Of a stretch of DNA of 64,000 bases, positions 6,317-36,993 are shown piece after piece. The DNA lies in contig CAVWPA010000003.1 in the NCBI GenBank assembly GCA_963756875.1, positions 1,408,001 through 1,472,000 of the forward strand, read 5' to 3'. The translations under genes and the position numbers were made by a program. The notes under the pieces were generated by a model. It worked only from the letters and a program-made list of their open reading frames with translations, was not told the origin of the DNA and made no database searches. Position 1 is the stretch's first letter. Every line of letters starts with the position of its first letter. The DNA comes from an uncultured Verrucomicrobiae bacterium. Lineage in GTDB: Bacteria > Verrucomicrobiota > Verrucomicrobiia > Chthoniobacterales > UBA10450.

Positions 6317-7225
6317 TCAGTCCTCCGCCGCTTTTGAGGTCGATTTCTTTTTCTTGGCGGCCGTTTTCTTCGCGTGGGAACCGGATTTCGATTTCGCGGT
6401 TGATTCCGACTTTTTGTGCTTGTGCGATGTGGATTTTGCCGAAGATCTGGAACTCTTTTTTGACGAGTGCCTGTGATGGTGCCGATTCCTGTGATGAGAA
6501 TGAGAGATATCGGGATCGTGAAAGTGCGTTTGATCGATGAACGGTTGCAGGGGCACTGCATTCGCAGCAACGCGCGCTGAACTCGAAGAGCGGACGACCT
6601 CCGAGCGAGAGCCGATGCCCCGGGCGATTTCGTCAGCTAGTTTTTGCCGGTAGGCGGTGTTCAGCACATACCTGGCCTCCGTCGGATTGGTGAGAAAGCC
6701 GCATTCAACCAGAACGGCCGGAATTCTGGTCCTGCGCAGAACATAGTAGCCGCGCCGGCGCACCCCGCGGTTCGGCGTGGGAGCGCCTCCAGCGACGTAA
6801 TAATGGATCGCGGAAGCAAGCGGCAGACTATGGGAACTGTAAAAATATGTCTCAATGCCATTCGCTCCGGCCCGTTTCGCCGAGTTGAAATGAATGCACA
6901 CAAAAATGGCGTTGCGATACCTGTTGGCGATTGCCACTCGCGTCGGTAATGGCACGAAAACGTCGCTGTCTCTGGTCATGACGACGCGATAACCGTGCGC
7001 TTGCAGCACATTTCTGAGACGCACCGCGACGTCGAGCGTCATCGTCTTTTCGGCAATGCGCTGCCCTGGGATCCCGCCGCGATCGAAGCCTCCATGGCCG
7101 GCATCGATCACGACGACGGTGGAAGAATCGGACCTGGAATTACTGGACCGCGCCAGGGTCGGAACGCTGCCGGCAACTGAGACTGCGGCAAGGATCAAAT
7201 TGAGGCGGTAAACCTGTGAGAACAT
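6317..7225 (-). CDS. N-acetylmuramoyl-L-alanine amidase (Amidase_3) with His- and Lys/Ser-rich tail
   Basis: Signal peptide; VVIDAGHGG, TRDSDVFVPL..R, CIHFNS and PAVLVECGFLTN motifs. Confidence 0.92.
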   Translation of the reverse strand: MFSQVYRLNLILAAVSVAGSVPTLARSSNSRSDSSTVVVIDAGHGGFDRGGIPGQRIAEKTMTLDVAVRLRNVLQAHGYRVVMTRDSDVFVPLPTRVAIANRYRNAIFVCIHFNSAKRAGANGIETYFYSSHSLPLASAIHYYVAGGAPTPNRGVRRRGYYVLRRTRIPAVLVECGFLTNPTEARYVLNTAYRQKLADEIARGIGSRSEVVRSSSSARVAANAVPLQPFIDQTHFHDPDISHSHHRNRHHHRHSSKKSSRSSAKSTSHKHKKSESTAKSKSGSHAKKTAAKKKKSTSKAAED

Positions 7226-14976: not shown

Positions 14977-17139
14977 ATGAAACTTTTCGCGCGCGCGCGT
15001 CCGCGAAAGAAACGGAGCAAACTCTTCCGTTACGGCTGGAAGATCACACTCATCGGCCTGGTCGGAGGCTCCGTGCTGTCCGTTATTGTGTTCTACGGAG
15101 TTTGGGCCGCGACTTTCGATATGAAGAAGGTCGGTGAAATGCCGGAGCGCAACACCGTGTTCGATGTGGACGGAAGAATTTACAGCCGTCTCGCCGGGGC
15201 GAACCGTTTGAGGGTCCCGCTCGATCAGGTCTCACCGCTTTTCATCAAGGCGTTGCTCGCCCGCGAGGACACCCGTTTTTATCAACACCCCGGGATCGAC
15301 TGGCATGGGATCGCTCGCGCGCTGATCCGCGATCTTCTAAGCGGTTCGGCAAAGGAAGGAGCGAGCAGCCTCACCCAGCAGCTTGCGCGCAACAGTCTCC
15401 CGCTGGGGGGTCGAACCATTAGCCGCAAGTTGCTGGAAGCGATGGTGGCGTTACGCATCGAGCAAACGTTCACCAAAAAACAGATTCTCGAGCTTTATGT
15501 GAACCGGATTTATTTTGGCTCCGGCTGTTATGGCGTTGAAACCGCTTCGCAGGCTTACTTTGGCAAGCACGCCTCAACCCTGAATCTTTCCGAAGCCGCG
15601 TTGCTTGCCGGTTTAATCCGCAGCCCCAATCGCTTTTCGCCTCTGAAAAATCCCGAAGGCGCGGCGCTCCAACGCGATGCTGTCCTGGACCGAATGGTCA
15701 AATTGAAAAAGATCTCGCTTGCCGATGCGATGCGCGCCAGGGCGACCAGGGTCAATACGCATCCCAAACGGATGCTCCAAATCCAGGAGAACTACGCGAT
15801 GGACGCCGTCCAGCGTGATTTAAACCTGCTCCTCAGTCAGGACCAGATCGATAACGGCGGTCTCTCTATATATACTACGCTCGATCCCGCCGTGCAGAAT
15901 GCCGCCCAGCAGGCGCTTGAGACTCAGCTCGCCAAAATCGAGCACCAGGCGAATTTCCACCATCCTATCAAGGCCAATTATCACCCGGTGGAAGGTCAGG
16001 AGGAGTCCTCCATGCCTTATTTGGAAGGGGCCGTAGTTTGCATCGATGACAAAAGCGGCGGCATTCGCGCGCTCGTGGGGGGTCGCGATTATTCGCAAAG
16101 CAAATTCAATCGCGCGCTTCCTCCCGCCAACCGGCAGATCGGGTCCGCTTTCAAGCCATTCGTTTACACGGTTGCGTTTTCGGAAGGCCTTCTTCCCGGT
16201 GCAGCCATCAGCGATGACCGCATCCAGCCCGGCGAAATCCAGGGCGCGGGAAATTGGTCGCCGGGGAATTCCGACGGCACTTATCGCGGCATAGAGTCCT
16301 GCTCTTATGGTTTAATTCATTCGCGCAACACCATGAGCGTGCGCGTCGGCCAGTTCGCCGGACTCGATGCGGTCCAGAAAGTCGCCACCACACTCAATCT
16401 CGGACAGAATATTCCGCGCGTTCCGGCGATCTATATCGGGTCGTTTGAAACCGACCTGAAAGATCTCACGGCGGCCTACACCGTGTTTCCCAATGCCGGT
16501 GTGCGCAAGCAGGCGTACATCATCGAGCGCATCGATGATCCCGAGCATCTGCCGATTTATCGCGCCGCGCATATTTCCGCGCCGGCGCTCAACCCGAGCG
16601 CTTCCTGGATGACTTCGCGTTTGATGGAAGAGGTGCTCACCCGCGGCACGGCTGCCAGCGCGCGTTCGTTAGGCTTCAAGCTGCCCGCCGCCGGGAAAAC
16701 CGGAACGACCAACGATTACAAGGACGCATGGTTTCTTGGTTATACCAGCGCACTTACCTGCGGTGTCTGGGTGGGGTTCGATCAGCCGACAACGATTATT
16801 CCCCACGGTTACGGGTCGGCGCTGGCGCTCCCGATCTGGGTGCAGGTGATGAACAAGGCCGCGCAACGATATCCGGCACAGGAATTTCAGCCCACCATGC
16901 CCATCGTACGCGCGCTGGTTTGCTCGGTTTCAAATCAGCTTGCCACAACCGGTTGCGAAGCGGCCGGCACAGCCTACGAAATTGATTTGCCCGCCGATAA
17001 AGTGCCCACCGTAGCATGCGAACTGCATGGCGGTCAGGAAATGCAGTTCGCGCAAAGACCGGGGGACATTGGCAAAAAGGCCAGCGAGCTTCCAAACAAG
17101 CTCTTTCAATCGCTCAAGAAACTGTTCGGCGGGAAATAA
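14977..17139 (+). CDS. Class A penicillin-binding protein (PBP1A family)
   Basis: Transglycosylase EDTRFYQH, GASSLTQQ and RKLLE; transpeptidase SAFK, SRN and KTGT motifs. Confidence 0.95.
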   Translation: MKLFARARPRKKRSKLFRYGWKITLIGLVGGSVLSVIVFYGVWAATFDMKKVGEMPERNTVFDVDGRIYSRLAGANRLRVPLDQVSPLFIKALLAREDTRFYQHPGIDWHGIARALIRDLLSGSAKEGASSLTQQLARNSLPLGGRTISRKLLEAMVALRIEQTFTKKQILELYVNRIYFGSGCYGVETASQAYFGKHASTLNLSEAALLAGLIRSPNRFSPLKNPEGAALQRDAVLDRMVKLKKISLADAMRARATRVNTHPKRMLQIQENYAMDAVQRDLNLLLSQDQIDNGGLSIYTTLDPAVQNAAQQALETQLAKIEHQANFHHPIKANYHPVEGQEESSMPYLEGAVVCIDDKSGGIRALVGGRDYSQSKFNRALPPANRQIGSAFKPFVYTVAFSEGLLPGAAISDDRIQPGEIQGAGNWSPGNSDGTYRGIESCSYGLIHSRNTMSVRVGQFAGLDAVQKVATTLNLGQNIPRVPAIYIGSFETDLKDLTAAYTVFPNAGVRKQAYIIERIDDPEHLPIYRAAHISAPALNPSASWMTSRLMEEVLTRGTAASARSLGFKLPAAGKTGTTNDYKDAWFLGYTSALTCGVWVGFDQPTTIIPHGYGSALALPIWVQVMNKAAQRYPAQEFQPTMPIVRALVCSVSNQLATTGCEAAGTAYEIDLPADKVPTVACELHGGQEMQFAQRPGDIGKKASELPNKLFQSLKKLFGGK

Positions 17140-17253
17140 GAGATTCCCTCGGACAAAGGTTGCCAGGGATGGCGACGGAGTTCCTCTGCGGTCGCTCAAC
17201 ATCCAACTTGAACCAAGCGTCAGCGGGCGAAGGGAATCGAACGTGAGAAAGGC

Positions 17254-17283
17254 TTGACACAAATTGCGACAAAGTAGTATCTG
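17254..17283 (+). promoter_or_regulatory. Probable sigma70 promoter of the secreted-protein operon
   Basis: Perfect TTGACA at 17254-17259, with a TAGTAT/TATCTG -10-like region at 17275-17283. Confidence 0.45.
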
Positions 17284-17309
17284 GCCTGTCAGGCCCACCA
17301 ACCCAACTT

Positions 17310-17837
17310 GTGATGAAAATCTCCCGCAGCATCGTGGTAGCGCTATTAATCAGCGGAATAATCGTAGCCTCTACCCAGGCCGCCGGGCATGGAGGCGCTC
17401 TCACTCCGCTCCATAATACAACCAAACGCGGCGGTTACGTTATCGAGACGGTGGGCGACACCCTGCACCAGGCGCCGCCTCAGGATACCCGTCTGATCAT
17501 TCGCGTTTCCGCCGACAAAAAGCTGATTAAGCCGGCAAGCATCGCGCTGATCGACAAGAGCGGTGCTGCGATCAAGCCGGTGTTTCGTGAGGACCGAAAA
17601 GTTGGCCACGAAGAAAATACGGGGTTGCCCTTGTCGGTCGGCGGATACGGGGACACGTCGGGGGTTCATTCCACGGGCGTCGGAATCAATCTCAACAAGA
17701 TCTTTGGACCGCACGGCAGCTACGCCTACACGAAAGTGGATTGGCCGAAGAACGTGTTCACTGCGGACAAAAAACTGCAGATCGTTTTGCCCGGCGGGCA
17801 GGCGCTTCTTCTTCCGCTGACTGCAATCGCCCAATGA
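17310..17837 (+). CDS. Exported hypothetical protein (ORF A)
   Basis: Sec signal (KISRSIVVALLISGIIVASTQA); ATGA overlap with the next gene. Confidence 0.75.
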   Translation: MMKISRSIVVALLISGIIVASTQAAGHGGALTPLHNTTKRGGYVIETVGDTLHQAPPQDTRLIIRVSADKKLIKPASIALIDKSGAAIKPVFREDRKVGHEENTGLPLSVGGYGDTSGVHSTGVGINLNKIFGPHGSYAYTKVDWPKNVFTADKKLQIVLPGGQALLLPLTAIAQ

Positions 17838-18316
17838 AACCCCATGCTTTTATCTGCTCGCTCGCGATCGCTGCAATTGGTTTCATTCTGACCGGAAACG
17901 CATTCGCGAAACCGGCCGGCTGTCCCTGCAATCCATGCAAATGCGGCGTCTGTCATTGCGGTGGCGGCGGCGGCGGTGGTGGTGGTGGCGAGAAACAGGC
18001 ACATAAAAAGGAGGGCGGCAAAAAAGAGGGCGACAAACATCACCACGGGCGAGGGAATCATGAAGGAGGCAGCAGCGTCGGAGTGGGATTCGATGTCGAT
18101 CTTGGCGGCGTCGGACATCGTACGCGGGAACCGGATCCGTTTGCCGTTTCCGAAGGATCGTCCAGCTCACAAACACACGAGCGACATACGGCGAAAAACA
18201 AGGAGACCCATGTCGCCAACTCCAATCCATTTGCCGATATAAAGCTTACGGGGAAACAGGCCAAAAACATAGCCGCATCGGAAGGCTCTTCCGGGACGAC
18301 GTTGCCCAAAAAATAA
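17834..18316 (+). CDS. Exported Cys-cluster / poly-Gly / His-Lys-rich small protein (ORF B)
   Basis: ATG at 17834 overlaps the upstream TGA. Signal peptide ending NAFA, then GCPCNPCKCGVCHC, G10 and KHHHGRGNH. Confidence 0.8.
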   Translation: MKPHAFICSLAIAAIGFILTGNAFAKPAGCPCNPCKCGVCHCGGGGGGGGGGEKQAHKKEGGKKEGDKHHHGRGNHEGGSSVGVGFDVDLGGVGHRTREPDPFAVSEGSSSSQTHERHTAKNKETHVANSNPFADIKLTGKQAKNIAASEGSSGTTLPKK

Positions 18317-18364
18317 TCATGGCATCGCCGTTTCCACAAAGGGGGCCAGCGCGAGGCGTTCCCA

Positions 18365-19861
18365 GTGGATCGGATTAGCTTGTTCGCGGCTGGTTGGTCC
18401 GCTGTTGCGGCGAGCCTCGTCTTTATCGGCAATCCCATTCTTGCCGACACACTGACGTCGCAAGTGCGGATCGACGTCAAAATCGTCGAGGTCAGCCGCA
18501 ACTCGACACGCGAGCTCGGCATTGATAATAGCCTCGCTGAAGCTCTTTCAAAGTTGCCGCCGGACGCTTCCAAGCTGCCCGCGCCCCAGACGTCGGTTCC
18601 GGTTTTGGGGCCGTCTCCTTCTGCCGGCGTCATTGGTCAGCGCCTTTTTCCCAACGAGGAAGCACCGTACAACATCACATTTAGCACGATGCTGACAGAC
18701 CCTCAGCTTGAAGCCATGCTGAAAGCGTTCGACCGTGCGAAGAACGCCAAAGTTCTTTCGGTGCCGACCGTCATGGCTCCGTATAATCAGCGTGCAAGCA
18801 TCGTCATTAATCCTTCGGTCCCGTTTCCCAACCAAACGCTGATCCTCGACGCGACGCCGCACCTCGGCGCGGATGGCAGCATCCTGATTACGATTGTTCC
18901 CAAAGTGTCGGAAGGGAACATTCTTCAACAGCCCACAGTGCAGCCACGGGAAGTCGCGAATCCGATCACCGTGGGGATCGACCAGGTTCCGGTGCTGGGC
19001 GGACTTTTCAAGAAGACTCAGACTCCCGAGCACAAGGAGAACCTGATCGTTTTCGTTACCGCTCAACCCGTCGATGTGTTTTCGCATTCCAGCAGTGGGA
19101 ACGGGTCGGATCCGGTTAAGGTGGATGCGGTCGGCACCGGCGAAACCATCGGACACGTCGGGGATCTGAACATTCAAAATCTTACGGATGGTCCGCTGCA
19201 TTTTTTCGTCCCGCCGATGATCCTCGAATCGATTAATGGCTCCGACCAGGATTACGTTTGTCCGCACGGCGAGAACGTGTCGATTCCCGCGGGTCAAACC
19301 AAAACGGTTCCCATGGATGGCGTTTGCATCAACCGGAACAAGCCGCCTGTCGGCAAAGGTGTCAGCGGCGCGCTCGTCGTGAACACGGTCGAACCCAATA
19401 TTGCCCAACATCCCGATTGTCATCTGCCCGCGAAGGCAGCCGGCAATTTGTTGCTCATTTGCGATTCGATTTATCAGGCGGCTGAAAAACTGCAGGAAGA
19501 AGGCGAGCTAAAGGAATTCCCTTACAAGAAAAAGAAGGAGCAAAAGGAGATCCTGGTGCAATGGAGCACCTGGGCCAACCCACGGATTTCCGAAGTCACA
19601 AAAGAACCGCCGGCGACGAAGGACGATCTAAAGAAGGTCGTTTACAAACAGGTTGAAGAAAAGGGAAAGCCGAGTCCCGGAACGAAGAAGAAGCTCGACC
19701 AGGGCATCGACACCATCTTCGAAAAAGTGGAGCTCACCTCAACGAAAGCCAAAGAGTTGGAAAAGCCCGATCCATTCGCCGGCGTGGAGCTAACAGGCGA
19801 GAAGGCCAAGAACGAGCAAGAGCCGGCCGCCCAAAGCCCGGCTCCGTCTCCAAAGGGATGA
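18365..19861 (+). CDS. Minimal secretin-like domain fused to conserved unknown domain X (ORF C)
   Basis: Secretin motifs QVRIDVKIVEVS..LGID, AKVLSVPTV..NQRASI, LDATPHL..DGSILITIVPKVS and VPVLGGLFK..KENLIVFVT; C-terminal half is paralogous to ORFs D-F. Confidence 0.75.
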   Translation: MDRISLFAAGWSAVAASLVFIGNPILADTLTSQVRIDVKIVEVSRNSTRELGIDNSLAEALSKLPPDASKLPAPQTSVPVLGPSPSAGVIGQRLFPNEEAPYNITFSTMLTDPQLEAMLKAFDRAKNAKVLSVPTVMAPYNQRASIVINPSVPFPNQTLILDATPHLGADGSILITIVPKVSEGNILQQPTVQPREVANPITVGIDQVPVLGGLFKKTQTPEHKENLIVFVTAQPVDVFSHSSSGNGSDPVKVDAVGTGETIGHVGDLNIQNLTDGPLHFFVPPMILESINGSDQDYVCPHGENVSIPAGQTKTVPMDGVCINRNKPPVGKGVSGALVVNTVEPNIAQHPDCHLPAKAAGNLLLICDSIYQAAEKLQEEGELKEFPYKKKKEQKEILVQWSTWANPRISEVTKEPPATKDDLKKVVYKQVEEKGKPSPGTKKKLDQGIDTIFEKVELTSTKAKELEKPDPFAGVELTGEKAKNEQEPAAQSPAPSPKG

Positions 19862-21356
19862 GAGAGCAAGATAACAGTCCGAAAGCCTGGCACCGGCGAC
19901 TTGGTCCATCACCGCGACCAGCATTGCGCGTGCTCTTCGTTCTGGGCTGGCTCTGTCTCGCTATTTCCGTTCTCGCCGACGAACCGAAGGTCACTAAGAA
20001 CGCTGATGGCAGTACCACCACAACTGAAAACGTGACTGTTACAGAAATGAATCGTCAGGGTGGCCTGAGTTACAAAGATTACCAGAAATCCACAACGCGG
20101 GACATCCGCGGAAAAATTACCAAAATCGAATGGTACCATCTGGGGAAGAAAGGGAAACGTCGCGCGCTCGGGCGCGTCTTGTTTCGTTCAGTCAGATCCC
20201 AAAACTCAACGGACCGTGATCACGACGTACACATATCAGAAAAATGGGACTCTCGTGAGTAAAGGGGAGGAGGTTTATTCGAACAAGGATGGAAGCCTGC
20301 TCCATGAGAAATCTGAGAACTATGACCCGACCGGGAAAAATGTGAATGCAGGCATAAGGCACGAATGGGAAGGTTGGGAGGACGGTAACACCAAAACATG
20401 GAAATCGGAGCAGTGGAATCCCAAGACCCAGGAATGGCAGCCGTTACCCATTAATCCCGGTCCTGAGACCCATCCTAAACTCGACAAGGCACTCGATGAC
20501 TACGCAAAGGATCACGGTAACGCTTCTCCCCTCGAGCCATCCGAGTCGGCTTCACCGTCTCCGACCAAACCGCCACCAAAGACGATCTCCTCTCTGCTTT
20601 CTAATAAAGAGCCTGAACCTGGCGATTGCCGGGACCGGCCAGACCATCGGGCACATTGCTGATTTCAGGCTCCAAAACCAAACGGATCAGCCGGTCAGTT
20701 TTGTCATCCCGGCGATGGTGTTGGAATCGAGCAGCGGCAAGAACCAGCATTACGCCTGTCCAAAAGGGCAGACGGTCGATCTTGGACCAAAACAGAGTAA
20801 AACCGTGCCAATCGATGGCGTGTGCCTCGACCGAAGCAAACCGCCGGCAGGCAAAGGCATGACCGGCGATTTGGTCATCAACGAAGCCAGCCCGGGAGGG
20901 ACAGCGATGGCCGGTTCGCATGTTCCGCTCAAGGACGCGAACAAAATGCTTCGGATCGCCAAATCCAAGTACGATGCGGCCGAGAAATTGGAAAAGGAGG
21001 GCGAGCTCAAGGAATTGCCTTATCACGACAAGCAAAAGCAGAAAGACATCATGGTTCAATGGAGCATCTGGAGCGACCCGCAGATTTCCGAGATTACCGG
21101 TGCGCCGCCGGCCACCAAAGAGGATTTGAGGAAAGTCGTTTACAAACAGGTGGAAGAAAAAGGGCCGATGACGCCGGCGACCAAAAAGAAAGTGGACAAG
21201 GGCATCGGCACCATCTTCGAGAAAGTCGAGCTCACTTCAGCAAAAGCCAAAGACCTCGAGGCGCCCGACCCATTTCAAAACGTCGAAGTCACCGGCGAAA
21301 AGGCGAAAGCTGAAAATGAGTCGCCGCCAGTCGAAAGCCCGGCTCCATCCCCGTGA
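19858..21356 (+). CDS. Exported domain-X paralog (ORF D), two apparent +1 frameshifts (~20183, ~20607)
   Basis: ORFs 19858-20262, 20216-20662 and 20496-21356 are collinear with ORF E once one T (20182-20184) and one A (20606-20608) are removed. Confidence 0.75.
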
Positions 21357-21375
21357 GCTTTTCGTCCCTGAAAAT

Positions 21376-22812
21376 ATGAAACAACAGATACACCACCCGA
21401 GAGCTCGCCCTCAGCTACGGCTCTGGCCCAACGTGGCGCCGGTGCTTGTCATTTTAGGTTGGTTCTGTCTTACCGGCACAATTGTTGCCGACGAACCGAA
21501 GGTCACAAAAAATCCCGACGGAACCACTACCACGATCGAGAAAGTCTTCTTCGACAAACTCTTCGGGAACCCTTTTGTCGGCCGCGGCAAGAAACGGACC
21601 ACTCGGGACAAAGATGGGAACCTCACCAAGATCGAGTGGGTGCGCGGGGGAAAGAAACGGGAACGCCCGGTCGTGGCGATATTTGTCGAACGTAATCCCA
21701 AGTCGAATCAGACGACGATAGCAACCTATACCTATGAGAAAGATGGAACTCTGCAATCAAAGAAGGAAGAGGTTTATAACAAAAATGGCGCGTTGATTCT
21801 GGACCGTTATGAGACTCACTTCCAGATGGGAAAAGCAACCACTTTCCAGACGGGAAAAGCAACCACTCCCGCTCCCTTAACCTTCAGCCATTCCTACGAG
21901 GGGAAGAGCTTGGTCGGGGGGCAACTAGACAATGCCTTAAAGGATGTTCAAAATAGATGGAGCTCGGCAACTCCGGCTTCCGAGGCGTCCCCGCCTTCTG
22001 CCACTCCGTCGCCTTCGCCGAAAGAAACGACTCCGGCAACAATCTCGTCGCTAATTCTCCAGAAGAAAGTGGGCTTCGCGATTGCCGGCACGGGCGAAAC
22101 CATCAGGCACATTGCCGATTGCATAATTCAAAATCAAACGGACCAGCCGGTCAGCCTTGTGATTCCGGCGATGGTGCTGGAATCGAGCAGCGGAAAGAAT
22201 CAGCATTACGCCTGTCCAAAAGAGCAGACGGTCGAACTCGGACCAAAGCAAAGCAAAACGGTGCCGATTGATGGCGTTTGCCTGGACCGAAGCAAACCGC
22301 CGGTTGGTAAAGGAGTGACCGGCGATCTCGTCATCAACGAAGCCAGCCCGGGAGGGACAGCGATGGCCGGTTCGCATGTTCCGCTGAAGGAAGCCAACAA
22401 AATGCTTCGCCTCGCCAAATCCAAGTACGATGCGGCCGAGAAATTGCAGAAGGATGGCGAGCTTAAGGAGCTGCCGTACCACGACAAGCAGATGCAGAAA
22501 GACATCATGGTTCAATGGAGCATCTGGAGCGATCCGCAGATTTCCGAGATTACCGGTGCGCCCCCGGCGACCAAGGACGATTTGAGAAAAGTCGTTTACA
22601 AACAGGTGGAAGAAAAAGGGCCAATGACGCCCAAGACCAAAAAGAAGTTGGACAAAGGCATCGACACCATCTTCGAAAAAGTCGAGCTCACTTCAGCAAA
22701 AGCGAAAGAGTTAGAGGCGCCCGATCCGTTCCAAAACGTCGAATTGACCGGCGAAAAAGCGAAGGGCGGAACTGAATCGCCGCCCCAAAAAGAGAAGGAG
22801 CCGCAACCATGA
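21376..22812 (+). CDS. Exported domain-X paralog (ORF E)
   Basis: Signal peptide then DEPKVTKN (as in ORF D), beta-rich N-domain, Pro/Ser linker, domain X. Confidence 0.85.
   Translation: MKQQIHHPRARPQLRLWPNVAPVLVILGWFCLTGTIVADEPKVTKNPDGTTTTIEKVFFDKLFGNPFVGRGKKRTTRDKDGNLTKIEWVRGGKKRERPVVAIFVERNPKSNQTTIATYTYEKDGTLQSKKEEVYNKNGALILDRYETHFQMGKATTFQTGKATTPAPLTFSHSYEGKSLVGGQLDNALKDVQNRWSSATPASEASPPSATPSPSPKETTPATISSLILQKKVGFAIAGTGETIRHIADCIIQNQTDQPVSLVIPAMVLESSSGKNQHYACPKEQTVELGPKQSKTVPIDGVCLDRSKPPVGKGVTGDLVINEASPGGTAMAGSHVPLKEANKMLRLAKSKYDAAEKLQKDGELKELPYHDKQMQKDIMVQWSIWSDPQISEITGAPPATKDDLRKVVYKQVEEKGPMTPKTKKKLDKGIDTIFEKVELTSAKAKELEAPDPFQNVELTGEKAKGGTESPPQKEKEPQP
21820..21867 (+). repeat. 24-nt in-frame tandem duplication (FQMGKATT/FQTGKATT)
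   Basis: TTCCAGATGGGAAAAGCAACCACT followed by TTCCAGACGGGAAAAGCAACCACT. Confidence 0.9.
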
Positions 22813-24656
22813 ATTACCGATTTTCTAGTCATAGATTGGGGGAGACAAGACACGAGCGTAGTTGGCGAGTCGTCTTTGGTTTGCTTTTTATTATCACTCT
22901 TGCGCTCCCTGCACCTTTTTTGCGCGCCCAGACGGACGCAAAGGGCAATCCAATGAGTGCCGAGGATCTCGTCAATAATCATGATTCTTCCACGACTCCG
23001 AAGGGCCGGTCCACTCAGGTTGACCGCAATCCCGACAGCCAGAACATCGATCATGTGTGGGTTTACGATCCGAAAGGGCGCAAGCGCCGGGAAATTCGTA
23101 TCGATCGTGATCCGCTCGGAAACGCGCATGTGGAATCCATCGATTTTCGACCGGACGAGAAGACTGCGAGCACGGAAACAACAACGAGCTTTGCTCCCGG
23201 TTTCGATGGCCAGCGCCATCCGACGGATCGCAAAACTATCGTGTACCCCACCGCCGGTGGGTTCGTTACGCCTGACGAGAAGCTGAAGCATTCTACCGGC
23301 TGGCAGGAAAAGTGGGAGGATGGACACTGGGTCCGCGTTGCGGAGTTGAAAGATGGTCAATGGGTCTCCACGCAGAAGCAACCGCCGCCGCAGGAAAAGA
23401 CGATCTCATCTCTGCTTTCCAATAAAAGCGTGAACCTGGCGATTGCCGGTACCGGCAACACCATCGGCGACATTGCCCATCTCAAGGTCCAAAATCTTAC
23501 CGATCAACCAATAAGTTGCGTTATCCCGCCAATGATCCTCGAGTCCACCAGCGGCAAGAATCAGCATTACGCCTGTCCCAAGGGCCAGACGGTGGCGATC
23601 AAGCCCCATGATACCGCCACAGTCCCCATTGATGGCGTTTGCATTAACCGCCACAAACCGCCGGTCGGTAAAGACGTAACGGGCGATCTGGTGATCAATA
23701 CCGGCGATCCTACCGCTCCGCAAAATCCCGATTCACATCTTCCGGCAAAGGACGCGAACAATCTTCTGCGCATCGCCAGGTCGAAGTATGACGCCGCCGA
23801 CAAGCTGCAAAAGGACGGCGAGCTGAAGGATCTGCCCTACCACGATAAGCAAAAGCAGAAGGACGTTGTCGTGCAATGGAGCACCTGGACGGATCCGGAT
23901 ATTTCGGAAATCGTGGGCGGGCCTCCCGCAACAAAGGACGATTTGAAAAAAGTTGTCTACAAACAGGTGGAAGAGAGCGGGCCGATGACCCCGGGCACCA
24001 AAAAGAAGGTGGACAAGGGGATCGACACCATCTTCGAAAAAGTCGAGCTCACTTCAAAGAAAGCCAAAGACCTGGAAGAGCCTGATCAGTACGCAGAGAC
24101 GGGGACTCCGCCCAACACGGTCGAAATCGCGGATCATTCCGGGGATACAACGACCCAGGAAAAGCCAAAAGGAAAAGGAAGAGGAAAGGGTAAAGGGAAA
24201 GGCAAAGGCGGAAAGAAGTGGCCCAAACCAATCCAGGATTGGCTGGATAAAAAGAAAGCCGCGGATGATGCCGACAACGCGAAAAAGTGGGCACAGGATC
24301 AGTGGGACAGGGACCTTGAAAACTACTGCTTGCGAAACAGCGAGCATTACCGCGAGCTAAGACCAAAACAAGATGAGAAGTCGATAAAAGCCTTCAGAAA
24401 GAACGGCACGCAGACAGATAAGGATGATTTCGAAAAGGGTGAGCGCGAACTTAAGACACTCCGGCAACAATTCGCGCGGGACTTCCAGAAGACGGATCAA
24501 GCCAAGGAAGATTCTCAAATAATCCGTGATTCTGAAAAAGCGGCCGACGCCGCCCACGAAGCGGAGCAAAAAGCCGGAAAAAACATAGATCCGGCAACCA
24601 AGTCAGTGGTGGAAGCAGAGGAACCCAAATCCGAGATCGTTCCAGGTGTGTGGTGA
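22809..24656 (+). CDS. Exported domain-X paralog with (GK)n linker and charged helical C-terminal extension (ORF F)
   Basis: ATGA overlap; signal peptide; YD-like segment (WVYDPKGRK); domain X; KGKGRGKGKGKGKGGKK; helical tail. Confidence 0.85.
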   Translation: MNYRFSSHRLGETRHERSWRVVFGLLFIITLALPAPFLRAQTDAKGNPMSAEDLVNNHDSSTTPKGRSTQVDRNPDSQNIDHVWVYDPKGRKRREIRIDRDPLGNAHVESIDFRPDEKTASTETTTSFAPGFDGQRHPTDRKTIVYPTAGGFVTPDEKLKHSTGWQEKWEDGHWVRVAELKDGQWVSTQKQPPPQEKTISSLLSNKSVNLAIAGTGNTIGDIAHLKVQNLTDQPISCVIPPMILESTSGKNQHYACPKGQTVAIKPHDTATVPIDGVCINRHKPPVGKDVTGDLVINTGDPTAPQNPDSHLPAKDANNLLRIARSKYDAADKLQKDGELKDLPYHDKQKQKDVVVQWSTWTDPDISEIVGGPPATKDDLKKVVYKQVEESGPMTPGTKKKVDKGIDTIFEKVELTSKKAKDLEEPDQYAETGTPPNTVEIADHSGDTTTQEKPKGKGRGKGKGKGKGGKKWPKPIQDWLDKKKAADDADNAKKWAQDQWDRDLENYCLRNSEHYRELRPKQDEKSIKAFRKNGTQTDKDDFEKGERELKTLRQQFARDFQKTDQAKEDSQIIRDSEKAADAAHEAEQKAGKNIDPATKSVVEAEEPKSEIVPGVW

Positions 24657-24680
24657 GGCTCGAAAGCAACTAGAGTGCTT

Positions 24681-25280
24681 CTAGGGCATCACGGTAACCG
24701 GGGTCCCGACGCTCACCTCGTCGAACAGTTCGGCAATGTCCTTGTGCAACATGCGAAGGCATCCATGTGAAACCGATTTTCCGACCGTTCTCGGATGCGG
24801 CGTGTCGTGGAAGCCGACCGCGATCTTCCCGTTGGTCCATATCCCGATCCAGTAGCGCCCGAGTTCGTTTCCAGGGGCGCCGGCAGGAAATATTTTTCCC
24901 GTGATCGGGTGTTTCCACGCGGGATTTTCAATCATCTGAAAGACGCGGAAATCGCCGAGCGGGGTTTCCCATCCGGGGCGCCCCACGGCGATGGGATAGG
25001 TTGTGATTTCCGTGTCGCCGCGATAAAGCGCGACCTCATGACGGCTGCGACTCACCTCAAGGTGGACCAGCGCTGTCGGCACCTGATCTGAGACGGTCGG
25101 GATCTCGATGATCTGTCCGACAGCAGAAGAAACTCCTGCGATCACCACGATCGGGAGCAAACTCCACCATGCGGCCGATGGACGCCATGCGCTCACTGCT
25201 TTCAAATCACATCGTCGATGGAGAAGAAATGCAACAGGAAAAATTGCCGGGAGCGCCAAACCTCTCGAGCGCTGGGCCAA
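24681..25280 (-). CDS. L,D-transpeptidase (YkuD family); start uncertain
   Basis: YPIAVGRPGWETPLG and GFHDT..SVSHGCLRM catalytic motif. Confidence 0.92.
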   Translation of the reverse strand: MAQRSRGLALPAIFPVAFLLHRRCDLKAVSAWRPSAAWWSLLPIVVIAGVSSAVGQIIEIPTVSDQVPTALVHLEVSRSRHEVALYRGDTEITTYPIAVGRPGWETPLGDFRVFQMIENPAWKHPITGKIFPAGAPGNELGRYWIGIWTNGKIAVGFHDTPHPRTVGKSVSHGCLRMLHKDIAELFDEVSVGTPVTVMP

Positions 25281-25516
25281 CAGTTTTTACCTTGCGACTC
25301 TGGTCGCTAACGGAGAAATTATTTGTATGCCCCTTTTTTCGGCGATTCCCCTCGTAAGCCCCGGAAATAGACTGCAAGATGCCGACTAGCACGGATCAGG
25401 GAACTTCTGCAGAGAGACCGCACGCCGGGATTTTATCGCTCCCGCCGCAAAACATCCGGTGACAATGTTAGGAACGATGCCATTACTTTGAAGCAACGCC
25501 CTGTCTGGCTCTTCTC

Positions 25517-27127
25517 ATGACTCAAGCCTCTTCTTTGAAATTGCCCGACGGTGTTGAGATTCGAGGAAACGTCGGGCCGCGGTTCGACCATATTCTCACC
25601 CCGGAAGCGCTCGCATTTGTGGCAAAGCTTGAACGCGCGTTCGGCATTCGGCGGCTGGAATCGCTGGAACGGCGGGCAGGGCGCCAGGCAGAGTTGGATC
25701 AGGGTGGGTCACTCGATTTTTTACCCGAGACCAAATCAATTCGGGAGAGCGAATGGCAATGCGCTCCCATTCCGCCGGATATCCGGGATCGGCGGGTCGA
25801 GATCACCGGGCCGACGGATCGAAAGATGGTGATCAACGCACTCAATTCGGGCGCGAAAATTTTCATGGCAGACTTCGAGGACGCAAATTCACCCACCTGG
25901 CGGAACATGGTGGAAGGCCAGATTAATCTGTGGGATGCCATTCGGCGGACCATTGAGTTTACCAATCCCGAAGGAAAGGAATACAAACTCAACCAGGAGG
26001 TTGCGGTTCTGATGCCGCGGCCGCGCGGCTGGCATCTGGTGGAGAAACACATGCTGGTGGATAGCCGGCCCGTTTCCGGCGGTCTTTTCGATTTCGGCCT
26101 GTTCTTTTTCCATAACGCCAAAGAACTGATCGCGCGAGGAAGCGGTCCTTATTTCTACCTGCCGAAGTTGGAAAGCCATCTGGAAGCGCGGATTTGGAAC
26201 GACGTATTCAAGGTCGCCCAGGACGAATTGGGAATCCCGCAGGGGACGATTCGCGCCACCGTTCTGATCGAAACGATTCCGGCCGCTTTCGAGATGGACG
26301 AAATCCTGTACGAGCTGCGGGATCATTCCGCCGGCCTCAACTGCGGACGATGGGATTACATTTTCTCCTGCATTAAAAGGTTCCGGAACAAGCGCGATTT
26401 TCTGCTGGCTGATCGGGCGCTTATTACCATGACCACGCACTTCATGCACAGCTACTCATTGTTGTGCATCAAAACGTGTCATCGCCGGAATATCTTTGCG
26501 ATGGGCGGTATGGCCGCGCAGATCCCGGTAAAAAATAATCCAAAGGCTAACGAGGAAGCATTCGCCAAGGTCCGGGCGGACAAGGAGCGGGAGGCGGGTG
26601 ATGGGCATGACGGCACCTGGGTGGCCCATCCCGGCATGGTCCAGCTGGCCACCGATGCGTTTAACGAGAAAATGCCGCAGCCTAACCAGATCGCCAGGAA
26701 ACGCGATGACGTGAACGTCGCGGCGCGCGATTTGCTCGATTTTCGGCCATCGCAACCGATCACCGAACAAGGTTTGCGCACGAATGTCAGCGTGGGCGTG
26801 CAATACCTCGAGGCCTGGCTTCGCGGTCACGGTGCCGTGCCCATTTTCAATCTAATGGAAGACGCCGCCACTGCCGAAATTTCGCGGGCTCAGGTCTGGC
26901 AATGGATCCGCCACCCGCAGGGCGCGCTGACCGACGGGCGCAAGGTGAGCAAGGAACTGTTCCGATCGGTTCTGGCGGAAGAGCTGGACAAAATCAGAAA
27001 TGAGATTGGGCAGAAAAGATTCGCGGCCGGGAAATTCGACGCTGCTCGGCAGTTGTTCGATGAAATTACAACGAACGACGAGTTCGTGGAGTTTCTAACC
27101 CTGCCCGGATACGACAGGCTCGATTAG
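25517..27127 (+). CDS. aceB: Malate synthase A
   Basis: [39 protein letters not shown] and [14 protein letters not shown] motifs. Confidence 0.98.
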
Positions 27128-27131
27128 CAGA

Positions 27132-28403
27132 ATGGTTCCGAAAAATAGAGCGGCAGGCGACGATTGGGAATCGAATCCGCGCTGGCGCGGCATTCACAGA
27201 ACCTACTCGTTAGGGGACGTGAAGCGGTTGCAGGGAAGCGTGACAATCGAGCATACGCTGGCCCGGCGCGGAGCGGAGAAATTGTGGCAGCTGTTGGAAG
27301 CCGAGCCTTACCTCCACACTCTCGGCGCGCTAACCGGGAACCAGGCGGTTCAACAGGTTCGCGCAGGATTGAAGGCGATCTATGTCAGTGGCTGGCAGGT
27401 AGCAGCCGACGCCAATCTCGCGGGTCAGATGTATCCCGACCAGAGTCTTTATCCGGTTAACAGTGTGCCGGTGCTGGTGAAGCGGATCAACCAAGCCTTG
27501 CAGCGGGCCGACCAGATCGCGCACGCCGAGGGCAACAATCAGATCGACTGGTTCGCCCCGATTGTGGCCGATGCCGAGGCGGGCTTCGGCGGGCCGCTCA
27601 ACGTCTTTGAACTGGTCAAAGCGATGATTGAAGCCGGCGCGGCTGCGGTTCACCTCGAAGACCAATTGGCGAGCGAGAAGAAATGCGGTCACATGGGCGG
27701 CAAGGTTCTGGTGCCGACGCGCAGCGCATTGACGCACCTGACTGCGGCGCGCCTGGCCGCCGATGTTTCGAATGTTCCGACCATCATTCTCGCCCGGACC
27801 GATGCCAACGCGGCTTCGCTATTGACCAGCGATGCCGATGAGCGCGATCACGCCTTTCTCACCGGCGAGCGGACGCCGGAAGGTTTTTATCGCGTGCGGG
27901 CCGGAATTGACCAGGCGATCGCGCGCGGTCTCAGTTATGCCCCGCTGGCCGACATGATTTGGTGCGAAACGGCTGAACCGAATCTGGCGGAAGCCAGAAA
28001 ATTTGCAGAGAGCATTCGAGAGAAATTTCCGGACAAGCTGCTGTCCTACAATTGTTCGCCGTCCTTCAATTGGAAAAAGAAGCTGGATAGCGCCACGATC
28101 GGAAAGTTTCAGCGAGAACTAGGCGCCATGGGTTACAAGTTTCAATTTGTGACCCTGGCCGGTTTTCACGCACTCAACTACAGCATGTTTCACCTGGCCC
28201 GGGGATACACGGAACGCGGGATGGCTGCCTATTCGGAGTTGCAGGAGGCGGAATTTGCCGCTGAATCGCTCGGCTACACGGCTACCAAACATCAGCACGA
28301 AGTCGGCACCGGTTATTTCGACGATGTGGCGCACGTGATTGCGGGCGGCAAAAGCTCGACCGTCGCGCTGCATGGATCAACCGAGCGGGAACAATTTCAT
28401 TAG
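27132..28403 (+). CDS. aceA: Isocitrate lyase
   Basis: [20 protein letters not shown] signature; YNCSPSFNW. Confidence 0.98.
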
Positions 28404-28443
28404 CCTGTAATAAACAGCCTCGAGCCGGTCCTTAGAACTCAGT

Positions 28444-28511
28444 TCACCACGAAGAACACGAAGCAAAGCAAATACATGTCATCTTCGTGACCTTCGTGTT
28501 CTTCGTGGTGA
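28444..28511. repeat. Perfect 20-bp inverted repeat built of 9-nt CACGAAG units between aceA and aceK
   Basis: TCACCACGAAGAACACGAAG (28444-28463) / CTTCGTGTTCTTCGTGGTGA (28492-28511). Confidence 0.85.
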
Positions 28512-28541
28512 TTAAGAAATTCCGGTGCGACTGACTGGAGA

Positions 28542-30311
28542 ATGGATTCGGGGAATGCAACATCGTTGACCGATAGCAGGCTGGCCGCGCTTTGCGCCCA
28601 AACTGTTCAGGACGCATTCAACATTTATCAACGGCGTTTCGACGAAATTACCCTGCGGGGACGGGACCGGTTTCTGGCTCGGGATTGGGCAGGATCATTC
28701 GGTGATGCTGCCGCTCGGCTCCAACTTTATACGAAGGTCCTGGACGACCTCACCACCGCCATCAAATGCCTGATGGAATCCCGTTTGCCGGATCGCGCGA
28801 TCTGGAGCGCGATTAAAGCGGTTTACTCTTCACTAATTGCCGGGTCCGCCATGTGGGAGGTCGCTGAGAGTTTTTTTAATTCTCTGACTCGCCGTGTGTT
28901 CGCAACGGAAGGCGTCGATCAGGCGATCGAGTTCGTGGATACCGATTTCGATCCACCGCCTGACCCGGAAACCAATCAGCAGCGATCATATCGCGGCCAG
29001 CCTCTCGATCGATTGTTGTTTGCCGCCCTGACGGATACGACCGGCGGAGGTTTCGCAGAGGAATGTTGGTCGGATCTCAAGGCAACCGTGAGGGTGGCAG
29101 GCGAACGGCTGGAGGCAGCGTTCTTCGAGAGTGGCGCGGAGCGCGAAGCGAACGGCGATTGGCGGCTCGAGATGGCGGGCCGGGTCTTTTATCGCGGACG
29201 AGGCGCTTACTTTGTGGGACTTCTTGGATGCGGTTCCGCCAGTATGGTGGAATTGCCCATCGCGCTTTGCCTGCGGCATCCAAGCAAACAGGGAATCAGT
29301 CTGGACGCCGTCCTGCATGGAGAGAGCGATCTGGCGGTGCTGTTTTCCTACACCCGGGCTTATTTTCGGGTAACAGCGAAATGTCCGCACCAGCTGATCC
29401 GGTATCTCGAACAGCTAATGCCCCGCAAACGAAGGGTGGATCTTTACAACGCGATCGGATTTCATCGCCATGGCAAAACGGAATTTTATCGCGATTTCGT
29501 GAGTCATCTGCGCGATTCGACGGATCGGTTCGGGCTCGCCGAAGGAGTGCCCGGGATGGTGATGCTGGTTTTCACTCTTCCGAGCTACGACGTCGTGTTC
29601 AAGTTGATCAAGGACCAGTTCGATTTTCCGAAGGATAGCACGCGTGCCGAAGTGATGAGTCGCTATCGCCTGGTGTTTGAGCACGATCGGGCCGGCCGGT
29701 TGGTGGAAGCCCATGAATTTGAGCATCTCCGGATCGCGCGGGAGCGGTTCGACGAGCGCTTGCTCGACCAACTTCTGCGGGAAGCCCGCCAAATCGTGCG
29801 AGTTGAGGGCGACGACGTGATGATCAGCCATGCTTACGTCGAGCGTCGGATCAAGCCGCTGAATCTGTTCTTCAGGAACGCCGACGAGATCGAGTCCGCC
29901 ACCGCGGCGATCGATTATGGCCAGGCCATCAAGGACATGGCCGCGTCGAACATTTTTCCCGGCGATTTGCTGACCAAGAATTTCGGGGTGACGCGGACCG
30001 GCCGGGTGGTGTTTTATGATTACGACGAGCTTTGTTTCCTAACGGATTGCAATTTCCGCGATCTCCCGAAAGCAACGACATACGAGGAGGAAATATCTGC
30101 TGAGCCATGGTTCTCGGTCCGCGCTAACGATATTTTCCCGGAGGAGTTCCCCCGGTTTCTATCGCTGCCCGGTCCGGCTCGGACCGCGTTATTCGAACGG
30201 CATGCCGATTTGTTTGGCGCCGATTTTTGGCGGGGCGTTCAACAGAAACTTCGCGACGGCGAGCTGCCGGAGATTTTTCCGTACAAAGCAGAGCGGCGGC
30301 TAAAGACGTAA
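28542..30311 (+). CDS. aceK: Isocitrate dehydrogenase kinase/phosphatase
   Basis: AESFFNS, HGKTEFYRD, GMVMLVFTLP..VVFKLIKD and NIFPGDLLTKNFGVTRTGRVVFYDYDE motifs. Confidence 0.96.
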   Translation: MDSGNATSLTDSRLAALCAQTVQDAFNIYQRRFDEITLRGRDRFLARDWAGSFGDAAARLQLYTKVLDDLTTAIKCLMESRLPDRAIWSAIKAVYSSLIAGSAMWEVAESFFNSLTRRVFATEGVDQAIEFVDTDFDPPPDPETNQQRSYRGQPLDRLLFAALTDTTGGGFAEECWSDLKATVRVAGERLEAAFFESGAEREANGDWRLEMAGRVFYRGRGAYFVGLLGCGSASMVELPIALCLRHPSKQGISLDAVLHGESDLAVLFSYTRAYFRVTAKCPHQLIRYLEQLMPRKRRVDLYNAIGFHRHGKTEFYRDFVSHLRDSTDRFGLAEGVPGMVMLVFTLPSYDVVFKLIKDQFDFPKDSTRAEVMSRYRLVFEHDRAGRLVEAHEFEHLRIARERFDERLLDQLLREARQIVRVEGDDVMISHAYVERRIKPLNLFFRNADEIESATAAIDYGQAIKDMAASNIFPGDLLTKNFGVTRTGRVVFYDYDELCFLTDCNFRDLPKATTYEEEISAEPWFSVRANDIFPEEFPRFLSLPGPARTALFERHADLFGADFWRGVQQKLRDGELPEIFPYKAERRLKT

Positions 30312-35733: not shown

Positions 35734-36993
35734 ATGAAATCGCGCGTTCCAGCGTTCCTTTTTGCTCTGGTCATCGGTCTCTCCTTTTCCCAGGTGAGCA
35801 GGGCTGCGGTTATCTTCAAGCCGGGTAAAAAAGCGAAGTACGTCGCGCCCGGCGAAGAGGAGATGAACGGCAACGCGGAGGAGCTATTCCACATCGCTCA
35901 GAAAGCCGAGGGAAATGGCAATGTGAAGCGGGCTATCCGAGCCTACAAGACGTTGGTGCGCCGGCATCCGAAGGACGCGCTTGCAGCGGGCTCGATTTTT
36001 CGCGCGGGTGAATTACAAGAGAAGATCAATGATCTCCCGGACGCGGTGCTATCGTTCCGGACCCTGATGGAAAGATATCCGAGCAGTCCGCATTTTGATG
36101 AGGCAATTGAAGGTCTATTTCGCATCGGGGAAGCATATTTGGGAGGCAGAAAGATCAAAATTCTTGGTGTTCCAGTTGCCTCTTCGATGGATAAGGCGGT
36201 GGAAATCTTCGCGGCTGTCATTCGCAGCGCGCCGTTTGGCAAGTACACGGCCCGCGCGCAATTCGACATTGGTTTGGCCCGGGAAAAGGAACACCTGAAT
36301 GACGCGGCACTTGAGGCTTACCAGGCGGTGATCGATAAATTTCCAAACGAACCCGTCGCGGCCGATGCCCAGTATCAGATTGGTTACATCTGGATGAGAG
36401 TGGCAAAGGCCGGCGCGAAGGATCTCGCCGCTACTAAAAACGCCCAAACTGCTTTCGGAGACTTTCTCTTTCGGTATCCCAATAGCGAAAAGGCTCCGCA
36501 GGCACGCGCTAATCTGAAGCTGCTCGAGCACAAACAGACTACGAGCGCGTTTGACGTGGCGAGGTTTTACGACAAGCAAAAACACTATCGGGCTGCCGTG
36601 ATTTATTATAATGAGGTGATCCGAGAGCAGCCGGATTCGCCGGAAAGCATGAAGGCTAAGAAACGAATCGACCAGTTGCGCGCGAAGTTCGGCGATGCCG
36701 CGCTTCAGCCGCTGGTCGAGACTGCGGAGGCAAAAAAGGAGAGAAAGGCCGCGGAAGAGAAAAAACATAAATCCGAGACGCATGCGGATGCCAATACGCA
36801 TGCGAATGACAGCGGGCCGTTGCCTCCGCCGGACACGGACTTGTCTCTGCCCCCGCCCGCTTCGCTGGGCTCCGGCGCTGATACAACTGGGCCCGGATCA
36901 TTGCCAGGCGCGGGAAGTAGTTCCTTGCCTGAGCCGTCGCCGACTCCGGAATCTTCGGCCACTCCGGAAGGAGAGGCCTCGCCGGCGCCGTGA
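35734..36993 (+). CDS. bamD: Outer membrane protein assembly factor BamD-like TPR protein
   Basis: TPRs with RYPSS and FRYPNSEKAP; VARFYDKQKHYRAAVIYY; upstream of lptE. Confidence 0.75.
   Translation: MKSRVPAFLFALVIGLSFSQVSRAAVIFKPGKKAKYVAPGEEEMNGNAEELFHIAQKAEGNGNVKRAIRAYKTLVRRHPKDALAAGSIFRAGELQEKINDLPDAVLSFRTLMERYPSSPHFDEAIEGLFRIGEAYLGGRKIKILGVPVASSMDKAVEIFAAVIRSAPFGKYTARAQFDIGLAREKEHLNDAALEAYQAVIDKFPNEPVAADAQYQIGYIWMRVAKAGAKDLAATKNAQTAFGDFLFRYPNSEKAPQARANLKLLEHKQTTSAFDVARFYDKQKHYRAAVIYYNEVIREQPDSPESMKAKKRIDQLRAKFGDAALQPLVETAEAKKERKAAEEKKHKSETHADANTHANDSGPLPPPDTDLSLPPPASLGSGADTTGPGSLPGAGSSSLPEPSPTPESSATPEGEASPAP

Follow-up and report, generated by a model that had tools for sequence, protein, structure and literature searches.

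L,D-transpeptidases make covalent tethers between the outer membrane and the peptidoglycan, using Braun lipoprotein and, in some Proteobacteria, beta-barrel proteins. Bacterial alpha-2-macroglobulin is a periplasmic thioester protein that is paired with the penicillin-binding protein (PBP) PBP1C. Here we describe a cluster of six genes, A to F, in a 64,000-nt stretch of the genome of an uncultured Verrucomicrobiae bacterium (contig CAVWPA010000003.1, positions 1,408,001 to 1,472,000; hereafter the window). A domain of ~235 aa, domain X, recurs in four of the products, C, D, E and F. We read the cluster as an enlarged copy of a secreted envelope module specific to this lineage, made up of an X protein and the companions A and B. 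For X itself we tentatively favor, with confidence well short of even, the reading that it is a covalent attachment module of the envelope resembling the thioester domains (TEDs) of Gram-positive bacteria.

In TEDs, as described in excerpts from two studies (PMC4450167, PMC6194298), the Cys-Gln bond is buried where two subdomains, one beta and one helical, meet. In the same excerpts, the only universal residues are the Cys, in the context [YFL]C-hydrophobic-hydrophilic, and the bond-forming Gln, while a motif on helix alpha2, TQxx-hydrophobic-W, contacts the Cys backbone (PMC4450167, PMC6194298). Part of a report on the pLS20 adhesin states that Cys68 of its TED is needed for function (PMC8092201). 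Other excerpts from this literature describe TEDs as tip-located, stalk-presented and LPXTG-anchored; a 2026 paper, in its quoted part, places them in Gram-positive bacteria (Firmicutes, Actinobacteria), and the corresponding part of a 2022 survey reports new TED clusters obtained with Jackhmmer and AlphaFold. Our literature searches on thioester domains in Verrucomicrobia and Gram-negative bacteria, and on Udaeobacter secretins, returned no paper describing a domain or locus like the present one; X, A and B form a conserved module that we have not found described.

Domain X and its family

Genes A to F are co-oriented on the plus strand and span 17310–24656 of the window in the list of open reading frames (ORFs), with start and stop codons overlapping as ATGA at the A/B, C/D and E/F junctions. 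The N-termini of the products carry Lys or Arg residues followed by a 12-aa hydrophobic stretch of mean hydropathy 1.8–3.2; judged from this hydropathy, they are consistent with Sec signal peptides. The X copies in C, D, E and F (coordinates in Table 1) are 57–88% identical in protein and 69–90% in DNA, far beyond chance, and they are the only copies in the 2.69-Mb genome (87.6% complete). The original prediction, made by a model from the letters and ORFs of the window, had described six co-oriented secreted genes with these overlaps, a domain common to C, D, E and F, and a secretin-like N-terminus in C, all of which stood up to the analysis. Two parts of its description did not: gene D is not a single ORF (see below), and the N-domains of D, E and F, called YD-like, gave no Pfam match at E<=1, RHS/YD models included.

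The same prediction took X for an uncharacterised domain, and so it proved in the databases. X has no Pfam, NCBIfam, PHROGs or PADLOC model, a PDB sequence search with the X profile returned only three chance-level rows (E 1.1–4), and the ESM Atlas yielded unnamed clusters only. Proteins of similar length fall into 255 clusters at 90% identity, all hypothetical or unnamed except one with the automatic name "TolA", which fits the charged tail (see below). At 50% identity the family counts 441 representatives (E<=1e-3).

The range of the family is narrow. Seven genome loci with X are labelled as Candidatus Udaeobacter, Chthoniobacterales or Verrucomicrobiae metagenome-assembled genomes. Of 300 other genomes from the window's family, 11 carried X, spread over eight of 36 genera that include the window's own; none of 100 other genomes sampled from the order did, and none of 400 others sampled from the phylum. 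Among the genomes searched, X is confined to this Chthoniobacterales family. Most matches are on contigs of 1.5–6 kb, and these counts are probably too low, because repeated genes assemble poorly. IMG/VR viral contigs contained no relative of X, so a phage or defence origin lacks support.

The commonest architecture is that of gene F, with a variable N-domain of ~190 aa, then X, then a charged tail of ~180 aa. Over 245 family proteins, X starts at a median residue of 189 and is followed by a median C-terminal tail of 181 aa, and 41 of the 245 match the F tail. Besides the secretin of gene C (below), X is fused, among others, to a reprolysin-like peptidase in P0167 and to an eCIS_core domain in P0241. 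Such variety fits a general tethering module.

A distant subfamily of metagenome proteins (P0235–P0245) was also noted, in which two X modules stand in tandem, each with its own helical part and each carrying the motif set GTGTTGH..Q.Y..G[YF]C. Their C-termini are coiled-coil or Cys-rich, and one member carries an eCIS_core domain.

Conserved residues of X and comparison with thioester domains

The AlphaFold2 model of X, built from 14 sequences, has a predicted local distance difference test score (pLDDT) of 91.7 and a predicted template-modelling score (pTM) of 0.86. It comprises eight strands (residues 7–96) followed by five helices (112–221), that is, a beta-sandwich and then a helical bundle. 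Conservation was scored over 189 full-length X domains drawn from the 245 proteins, and residues are given here in domain numbering. Gln51 and Trp159 are present in all 189 domains and Cys77 in 188. Gln185 and Gly75 are conserved at 100%, Asn28 and Trp156 at 98%, Gln155 at 97% and Arg80 at 94%; His20 reaches 88%, and there is no invariant His in X. The motif around Cys77, G-[VI]-C-[LI]-[DN], lies at the end of the strand formed by residues 68–77, and a second motif, [VI]QWS[TI]W, ends the second helix (146–159). Across the main family the context of Cys77 is [VIT]C[LIV][DNEVAT]. The distant subfamily has [YF]C[TVIA][DHN] at this position, within G-[YF]-C-[TVIA]-[DHN]-P-x-[LR]-P, together with [IV]QQTFW on the helix, and is nearer the TED consensus.

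Both Cys55 and Cys77 are held by 155 of the 189 domains, which favors an account of X as a non-covalent assembly or anchoring module, binding peptidoglycan, another envelope polymer, A and B or other X domains, with its Cys structural, for instance bonded to Cys55 as a disulfide in most members. In this general form the account is also that of the original prediction. The varied passengers and the long charged tails, typical of envelope linker proteins, point the same way, as do the tight linkage of A and B, which have short motifs in common with the X tails, and the weakness of every similarity to TEDs described below. However, all 34 domains that lack Cys55 keep Cys77, which is the sole Cys in 11 of them, so that a disulfide role is insufficient; the invariance of Gln51, Gln185 and Trp159 would also be left unexplained. 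We consider the non-covalent module a substantial possibility, if a doubtful one. The conservation pattern suggests that Cys77 is more than a mere disulfide partner, and in an exported domain a lone near-invariant Cys that is unaccompanied by any invariant His argues for covalent chemistry rather than a disulfide or a Cys-His enzyme.

A near-invariant lone Cys could also belong to a Cys-nucleophile enzyme (transglutaminase-, amidase- or transpeptidase-like) acting on the envelope or on the motif PFxxVxLTGxxAK common to B and the X tails. The conservation of His20 and Arg80 speaks for such an enzyme, and so do the cell-wall enzymes encoded nearby (a class A PBP, an L,D-transpeptidase and an amidase) and the presence of a possible substrate, LTG-x-x-AK, after X in 27 of the 245 proteins and at the C-termini of B proteins. 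Against it, domains that keep Cys77 can have R, T, D, V, L, N, I or P in place of His20, and X was matched by no sortase, papain-like or transglutaminase catalytic fold, the rows from the transglutaminase family, 8oxv_A (Z 5.8) and 4kty_A (Z 5.5), being limited to the beta-sandwich. Four paralogues with differing N-domains would, moreover, be unusual for one enzyme. This explanation seems to us improbable.

The likeness to TEDs (SfbI, Cpa, CpTIE, BaTIE and pLS20 TIE; PF08341, PF20610) has several parts. Like a TED, X is predicted to have a beta and a helical subdomain. It has one universal Cys, in a hydrophobic-C-hydrophobic-polar context that becomes [YF]C-x-D-P in the distant members, and a universal Gln. 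It has Q-x-x-hydrophobic-W on its second helix, with Val or Ile in place of the leading Thr of the TED motif. In the main family the first position of the Cys motif also departs from that of TEDs, being V, I or T instead of Y, F or L. When the X model was searched against 48,161 PDB representatives by a method independent of Foldseek, most matches covered the sandwich alone. The only ones spanning both subdomains, among the matches listed, were three TED structures, CpTIE 5a0g_A (Z 5.7 over 129 aa), Cpa 2xi9_A (Z 5.2 over 134 aa) and BaTIE 6fwv_B (Z 5.2 over 115 aa).

Profile comparison was made with an alignment of class II TEDs (the pLS20 TIE family and relatives, 31 rows). With the distant X subfamily, hhalign gave P 3.9e-4, probability 35% and a score of 39.2 over 182 columns. 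YCTDPDLPAP of the subfamily was aligned on YCIDPDKPAP, and pLS20 Gln256 fell on the Gln51 position in a low-confidence stretch. As controls, the reversed alignment scored 17.8, 35 column shuffles averaged 15.9 (maximum 22.4) and 35 shuffles of 8-column blocks averaged 23.8 (maximum 39.1); none of the 70 shuffles reached 39.2.

A good deal weighs against a kinship with TEDs. One block shuffle came to 39.1, which implies that the short motif at the Cys supplies most of the hhalign signal. The main X profile compared with the class II alignment gave only P 0.22 and probability 0.3%, though Cys was placed on Cys. The Z scores of 5.2–5.7 to TED structures lie in a range that the tool calls common for unrelated folds, and generic beta-sandwiches score higher, up to Z 6.2. 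Foldseek of X against the PDB found nothing at E<=0.001; its top 1000 chains held no TED, with generic glycosidase beta-sandwich domains (Z<=6.2) instead. No TED family came up for C, D, E or F at E<=0.1, the TED Pfam models match neither X nor 17 distant members, even at E<=10, and a scan of the whole genome with PF08341 and PF20610 gave no match at the locus. This Pfam miss is weak evidence, since a true TED, that of pLS20 p34, barely passes the Pfam cut-offs (TED_2 29.0 bits, TED 23.9 bits).

Topology and setting differ as well. The strands of X all precede its helices, whereas in TEDs the thioester Gln is on a C-terminal strand that follows the helices; X has no such Gln strand and no slipknot. 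By simple strand parity in the model, Gln51 and Cys77 may lie at opposite ends of the sandwich, in which case the partner would be Gln155 or Gln185, both in the helical part. Unlike TEDs, X is placed mid-protein or C-terminally rather than at a tip, and its host is a diderm, without an LPXTG anchor and without isopeptide or ester stalk domains. We prefer, at less than even confidence, the reading that X works like a TED, yet we do not file it as one, and its link to this known kind of domain is suggestive.

One TED_2 match was seen elsewhere in the genome (C3:530654-530812, 20.7 bits, below cut-off) and was rejected; it falls in a 149-aa ORF in which no TED-like features were seen.

If X is TED-like, as we tentatively prefer, Cys77 would form an internal thioester with a conserved Gln, for which Gln51, Gln155 and Gln185 are the candidates, and the helix motif [VI]-Q-W-S-[TI]-W would pack against the thioester site. 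A primary amine of the target would attack the bond, leaving the protein covalently tied to its target, which could be the peptidoglycan stem peptide or the lysines of the LTGEKAK tail motif in B and the X proteins. X would in this way tether its fused passengers (in D, E and F the variable N-domains, in C the minimal secretin barrel) after export of all products via Sec.

The unit of X, A and B and the rare secretin fusion

Residues 28–234 of C score 38.8 bits against the secretin model PF00263 (cut-off 27.5), and residues 1–245 on their own score 42.4 bits. In passing this cut-off, and in matching M13 protein IV in PHROGs, C is like the secretins GspD, PilQ and phage pIV. NCBIfam secretin models matched the core of C only and stayed below their cut-offs (TIGR02517 65.6 bits against 351, PilQ 52.9 against 284, SctC 27.1 against 238). 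Unlike those secretins, C has no N0–N3 periplasmic domains, its mature form beginning at the secretin domain, and domain X occupies the place of the pilotin-binding S domain; X is followed by a tail of the form PDPFxxVELTGEKAK. Two canonical secretins are encoded elsewhere in the genome.

The locus is also unlike secretin systems. ATPase, pilin and platform genes are absent from the cluster and from the region between 13.6 and 30 kb, and the nearest T2SSE-type ATPase (51271–52452) is within a two-component gene cluster. The original prediction was right, then, that this is not a standard locus for a type II secretion system (T2SS), a type III secretion system (T3SS), type IV pili (T4P) or Tad.

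We compared 14 genome loci (the window, L009–L015, L030, L031, L033 and L038–L040) and 33 metagenome loci; these are close relatives, with the PBP ~80% identical among them, and hence not independent. Gene A adjoins X in 12 of the 14 genome loci, and B does likewise. The exceptions without A or B are L033, a 5.7-kb contig, and G119, whose 89%-complete genome has two X genes but lacks A altogether. Of the 33 metagenome loci, 23 have X flanked by A or B, and the other 10 are contigs of 1.4–8.4 kb. Most loci consist of a single X protein with A and B. A secretin N-terminus of the C type is, by contrast, rare: it occurs in 10 of the 245 family proteins, and a secretin-X gene is present in three of the 14 genome loci (the window, L009 and L030) and in none of the 33 from metagenomes. 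Because A and B are usual and the secretin fusion is not, the core unit is an X protein with A and B, and the window holds an expanded version of it with a secretin fusion.

These counts bear on three further points of the original prediction. Linkage of X to A- and B-type genes, whose absence it had named as grounds for refutation, was found. The idea that X recruits variable subunits to an outer-membrane pore did not fare well; the system does not center on the secretin, and pore recruitment is at most a derived use of X. Nor does the L,D-transpeptidase, which had been proposed as an accessory, follow X from locus to locus, since it adjoins X in three genome loci (the same three that have secretin-X) and two metagenome loci. 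A PBP homologue is within the fetched stretch at six of the 14 genome loci and four of the 33 metagenome loci.

Two of the known systems can be compared with X in this light. C is like the tethers made by L,D-transpeptidases in being a putative outer-membrane protein with an extra domain that would face the periplasm, encoded near a YkuD L,D-transpeptidase and a class A PBP. X loci differ from these tethers in that an L,D-transpeptidase adjoins in only five of 47, and the attachment chemistry would reside in X. X is like bacterial alpha-2-macroglobulin with its PBP1C in being a candidate periplasmic thioester protein beside a class A PBP (six of 14 genome loci). It is unlike alpha-2-macroglobulin in sequence and fold, to which it shows no relation, and in lacking a CxEQ motif and macroglobulin domains. 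The linkage to the PBP may merely reflect the shared ancestry of close relatives.

Within C, the position of X can be placed from that of the secretin C-terminus, which is known. C would form a small secretin barrel with 12–15 X domains hanging beneath the outer membrane. A and B would be obligatory companions of X.

The family to which protein A belongs numbers 406 proteins of ~175 aa, every one of them hypothetical or unnamed, and eight homologues are 61–74% identical. A has no Pfam match. Its AlphaFold2 model (pLDDT 71.8) is an immunoglobulin-like (Ig-like) beta-sandwich, with a highly conserved loop, residues 100–126, left unmodelled. The best fold matches are the copper resistance protein CrdA (Z 8.1) and the DUF4426 protein PA0388 (PDB 3uc2; Z 7.8, Foldseek E 5.6e-4). 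The matches to these periplasmic beta-sandwiches cover 96–101 residues at ~6–10% identity, and A differs from them in its own conserved 27-residue loop and in having no conserved metal ligands; its homologue alignment has no invariant His, Met or Cys. A predicted complex of X with mature A gave an interaction prediction score from aligned errors (ipSAE) of 0.01 and 0.00, run without controls, which carries no weight either way.

The C-termini of A (17817–17834 in the window, and in L009–L015) were also inspected. Five of the eight homologues end in -LAK, and the window's A ends in -IAQ. A C-terminal Lys is the attachment point used by L,D-transpeptidases when they join Braun lipoprotein to peptidoglycan.

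Protein B has residues 26–52 (17909–17989) right after the predicted signal peptide, with six Cys in CPCNPCKCGVCHC and then a run of ten Gly and a stretch rich in His and Lys. The Cys cluster, CPCxPCxCxxCxC, is kept in five of seven homologues. An alignment of the seven shows a conserved block, GVGxxVDLGGVG..DPFAV, and a C-terminal motif, [ND]PFxx[VI]xLTGxxAK, which also follows X in C, D and E and in 27 of the 245 family proteins. Long forms of B have an extra charged tail resembling that of F. The Cys region could be a metal site or a lipidation site, to judge from its sequence. In L009 and L012, B has a single Cys after a lipobox-like ALG/FGG.

A and B together raise another explanation, that the module handles periplasmic metal or redox stress, with B as a Cys/His metal binder, A as a protein of the CrdA/P19 type and X as a thiol partner. 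It draws on the Cys cluster and His-rich stretch of B and on the fold matches of A, among which HftA, Tp34, FtrA-P19 and PmoD are listed beside CrdA. However, A has no invariant His, Met or Cys, and its fold matches are generic Ig-like sandwiches of middling Z; the Cys cluster of B is absent in two of seven homologues, and X has one invariant potential ligand only. We regard a metal or redox function as very improbable.

Layout of the cluster, its neighbors and possible significance

Table 1. Genes and domains of the X cluster and its immediate neighbors (window coordinates)
Feature	Coordinates	Strand	Basis
Class A PBP (transglycosylase + transpeptidase)	14977..17139	+	Pfam Transgly 207.4 bits, Transpeptidase 71.8 bits
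Gene A, predicted secreted beta-sandwich protein, 175 aa	17310..17837	+	ORF, hydrophobic N-terminus
Gene B, predicted secreted low-complexity protein, 160 aa	17834..18316	+	ATG at 17834 overlaps A stop
Gene C, predicted signal peptide + minimal secretin + domain X + tail, 498 aa	18365..19861	+	ORF, PF00263
Secretin domain of C	18446..19066	+	PF00263
Domain X of C	19103..19807	+	
Gene D, E-like paralogue in three frames	19858..21356	+	ORFs, domain match
Frame 1 of D	19858..20262	+	ORF
Frame 2 of D	20216..20662	+	ORF
Frame 3 of D	20496..21356	+	ORF
Domain X of D	20595..21305	+	Domain match
Gene E, 498 aa, or 478 aa from likely start 21376	21316..22812	+	ORF
Domain X of E	22054..22761	+	
Gene F, predicted signal peptide + N-domain unlike E's + domain X, 615 aa	22809..24656	+	ORF
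Domain X of F	23415..24116	+	
KG-repeat and charged tail of F, ~180 aa	24120..24656	+	
L,D-transpeptidase (YkuD), SHGC motif, convergent with F	24681..25280	-	PF03734 85.5 bits, cut-off 23.4

Gene E runs from a predicted signal peptide through a beta-rich N-domain and a Pro/Ser/Thr linker to X and the tail motif. Compared with E, gene D has two one-base insertions, with frame breaks near 20182 and at 20609–20611, and is broken up into three frames. In one soil-metagenome contig, which matches identically over 183 nt, a base is missing at 20182, within a T run, and this restores the first frame of D; for this reason the first break is most likely an assembly indel. A relative ~86% identical is without one base at 20611, the site of the second break. 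Gene D is probably intact in nature, as judged at the first break site only. The search of sequencing runs, which matched small word shares only (0.12, 0.06 and 0.05), served only to inspect these frameshift sites. The insertions in D hint at indel errors elsewhere in this three-contig assembly.

A third secretin-domain region was noted outside the window (G000:C3:1635213-1635843), where the reading passes through two in-frame TGA codons; this may be a broken gene or reflect further assembly errors.

The class A PBP is directly upstream of gene A, and we treat it as context, not as a proven member of the system. PADLOC gave no match for A, B, C, E, F or the L,D-transpeptidase, and the latter matched one unnamed family in PHROGs. 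An Amidase_3 (N-acetylmuramoyl-L-alanine amidase) gene is at 6317–7225 on the minus strand, 10 kb upstream of the cluster; counting the PBP and the L,D-transpeptidase as well, the neighborhood is rich in cell-wall enzymes. Promoter and terminator scans of 16900–25600 gave counts no higher than in shuffles.

Farther along the window, the complete glyoxylate-shunt set is encoded consecutively at 25517–30311, as malate synthase, isocitrate lyase and the isocitrate dehydrogenase kinase/phosphatase AceK. At 35734–37496 a gene for a BamD-like (YfiO) tetratricopeptide-repeat (TPR) lipoprotein is followed by an overlapping LptE gene, two outer-membrane assembly factors in one unit. Two-component genes make up nearly all of a stretch of ~24 kb (39088–63449), among them hybrid PAS histidine kinases of up to 1418 aa and many receiver-only proteins.

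Taken furthest, the TED-like reading would make X the first thioester-type covalent-capture domain family in a diderm. The secretin fusion would be stapled covalently to peptidoglycan or to the Lys-bearing tail motifs of B and the other X proteins, and X, A and B would build an envelope or surface structure that is covalently cross-linked, with neither sortase nor L,D-transpeptidase involved. We think it unlikely that this whole picture holds. A chemistry related to that of TEDs in an abundant uncultured lineage of soil Verrucomicrobia would by itself extend spontaneous covalent protein attachment to diderms and would suggest an anchoring of outer-membrane machines of a kind unknown today. X might also interest protein engineers as a possible self-reactive tag. 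Even without a thioester, X, A and B are three sizeable unannotated families, X with its 441 clusters at 50% identity and A with its 406 proteins, and together they are a conserved module in one of the commonest groups of soil bacteria.

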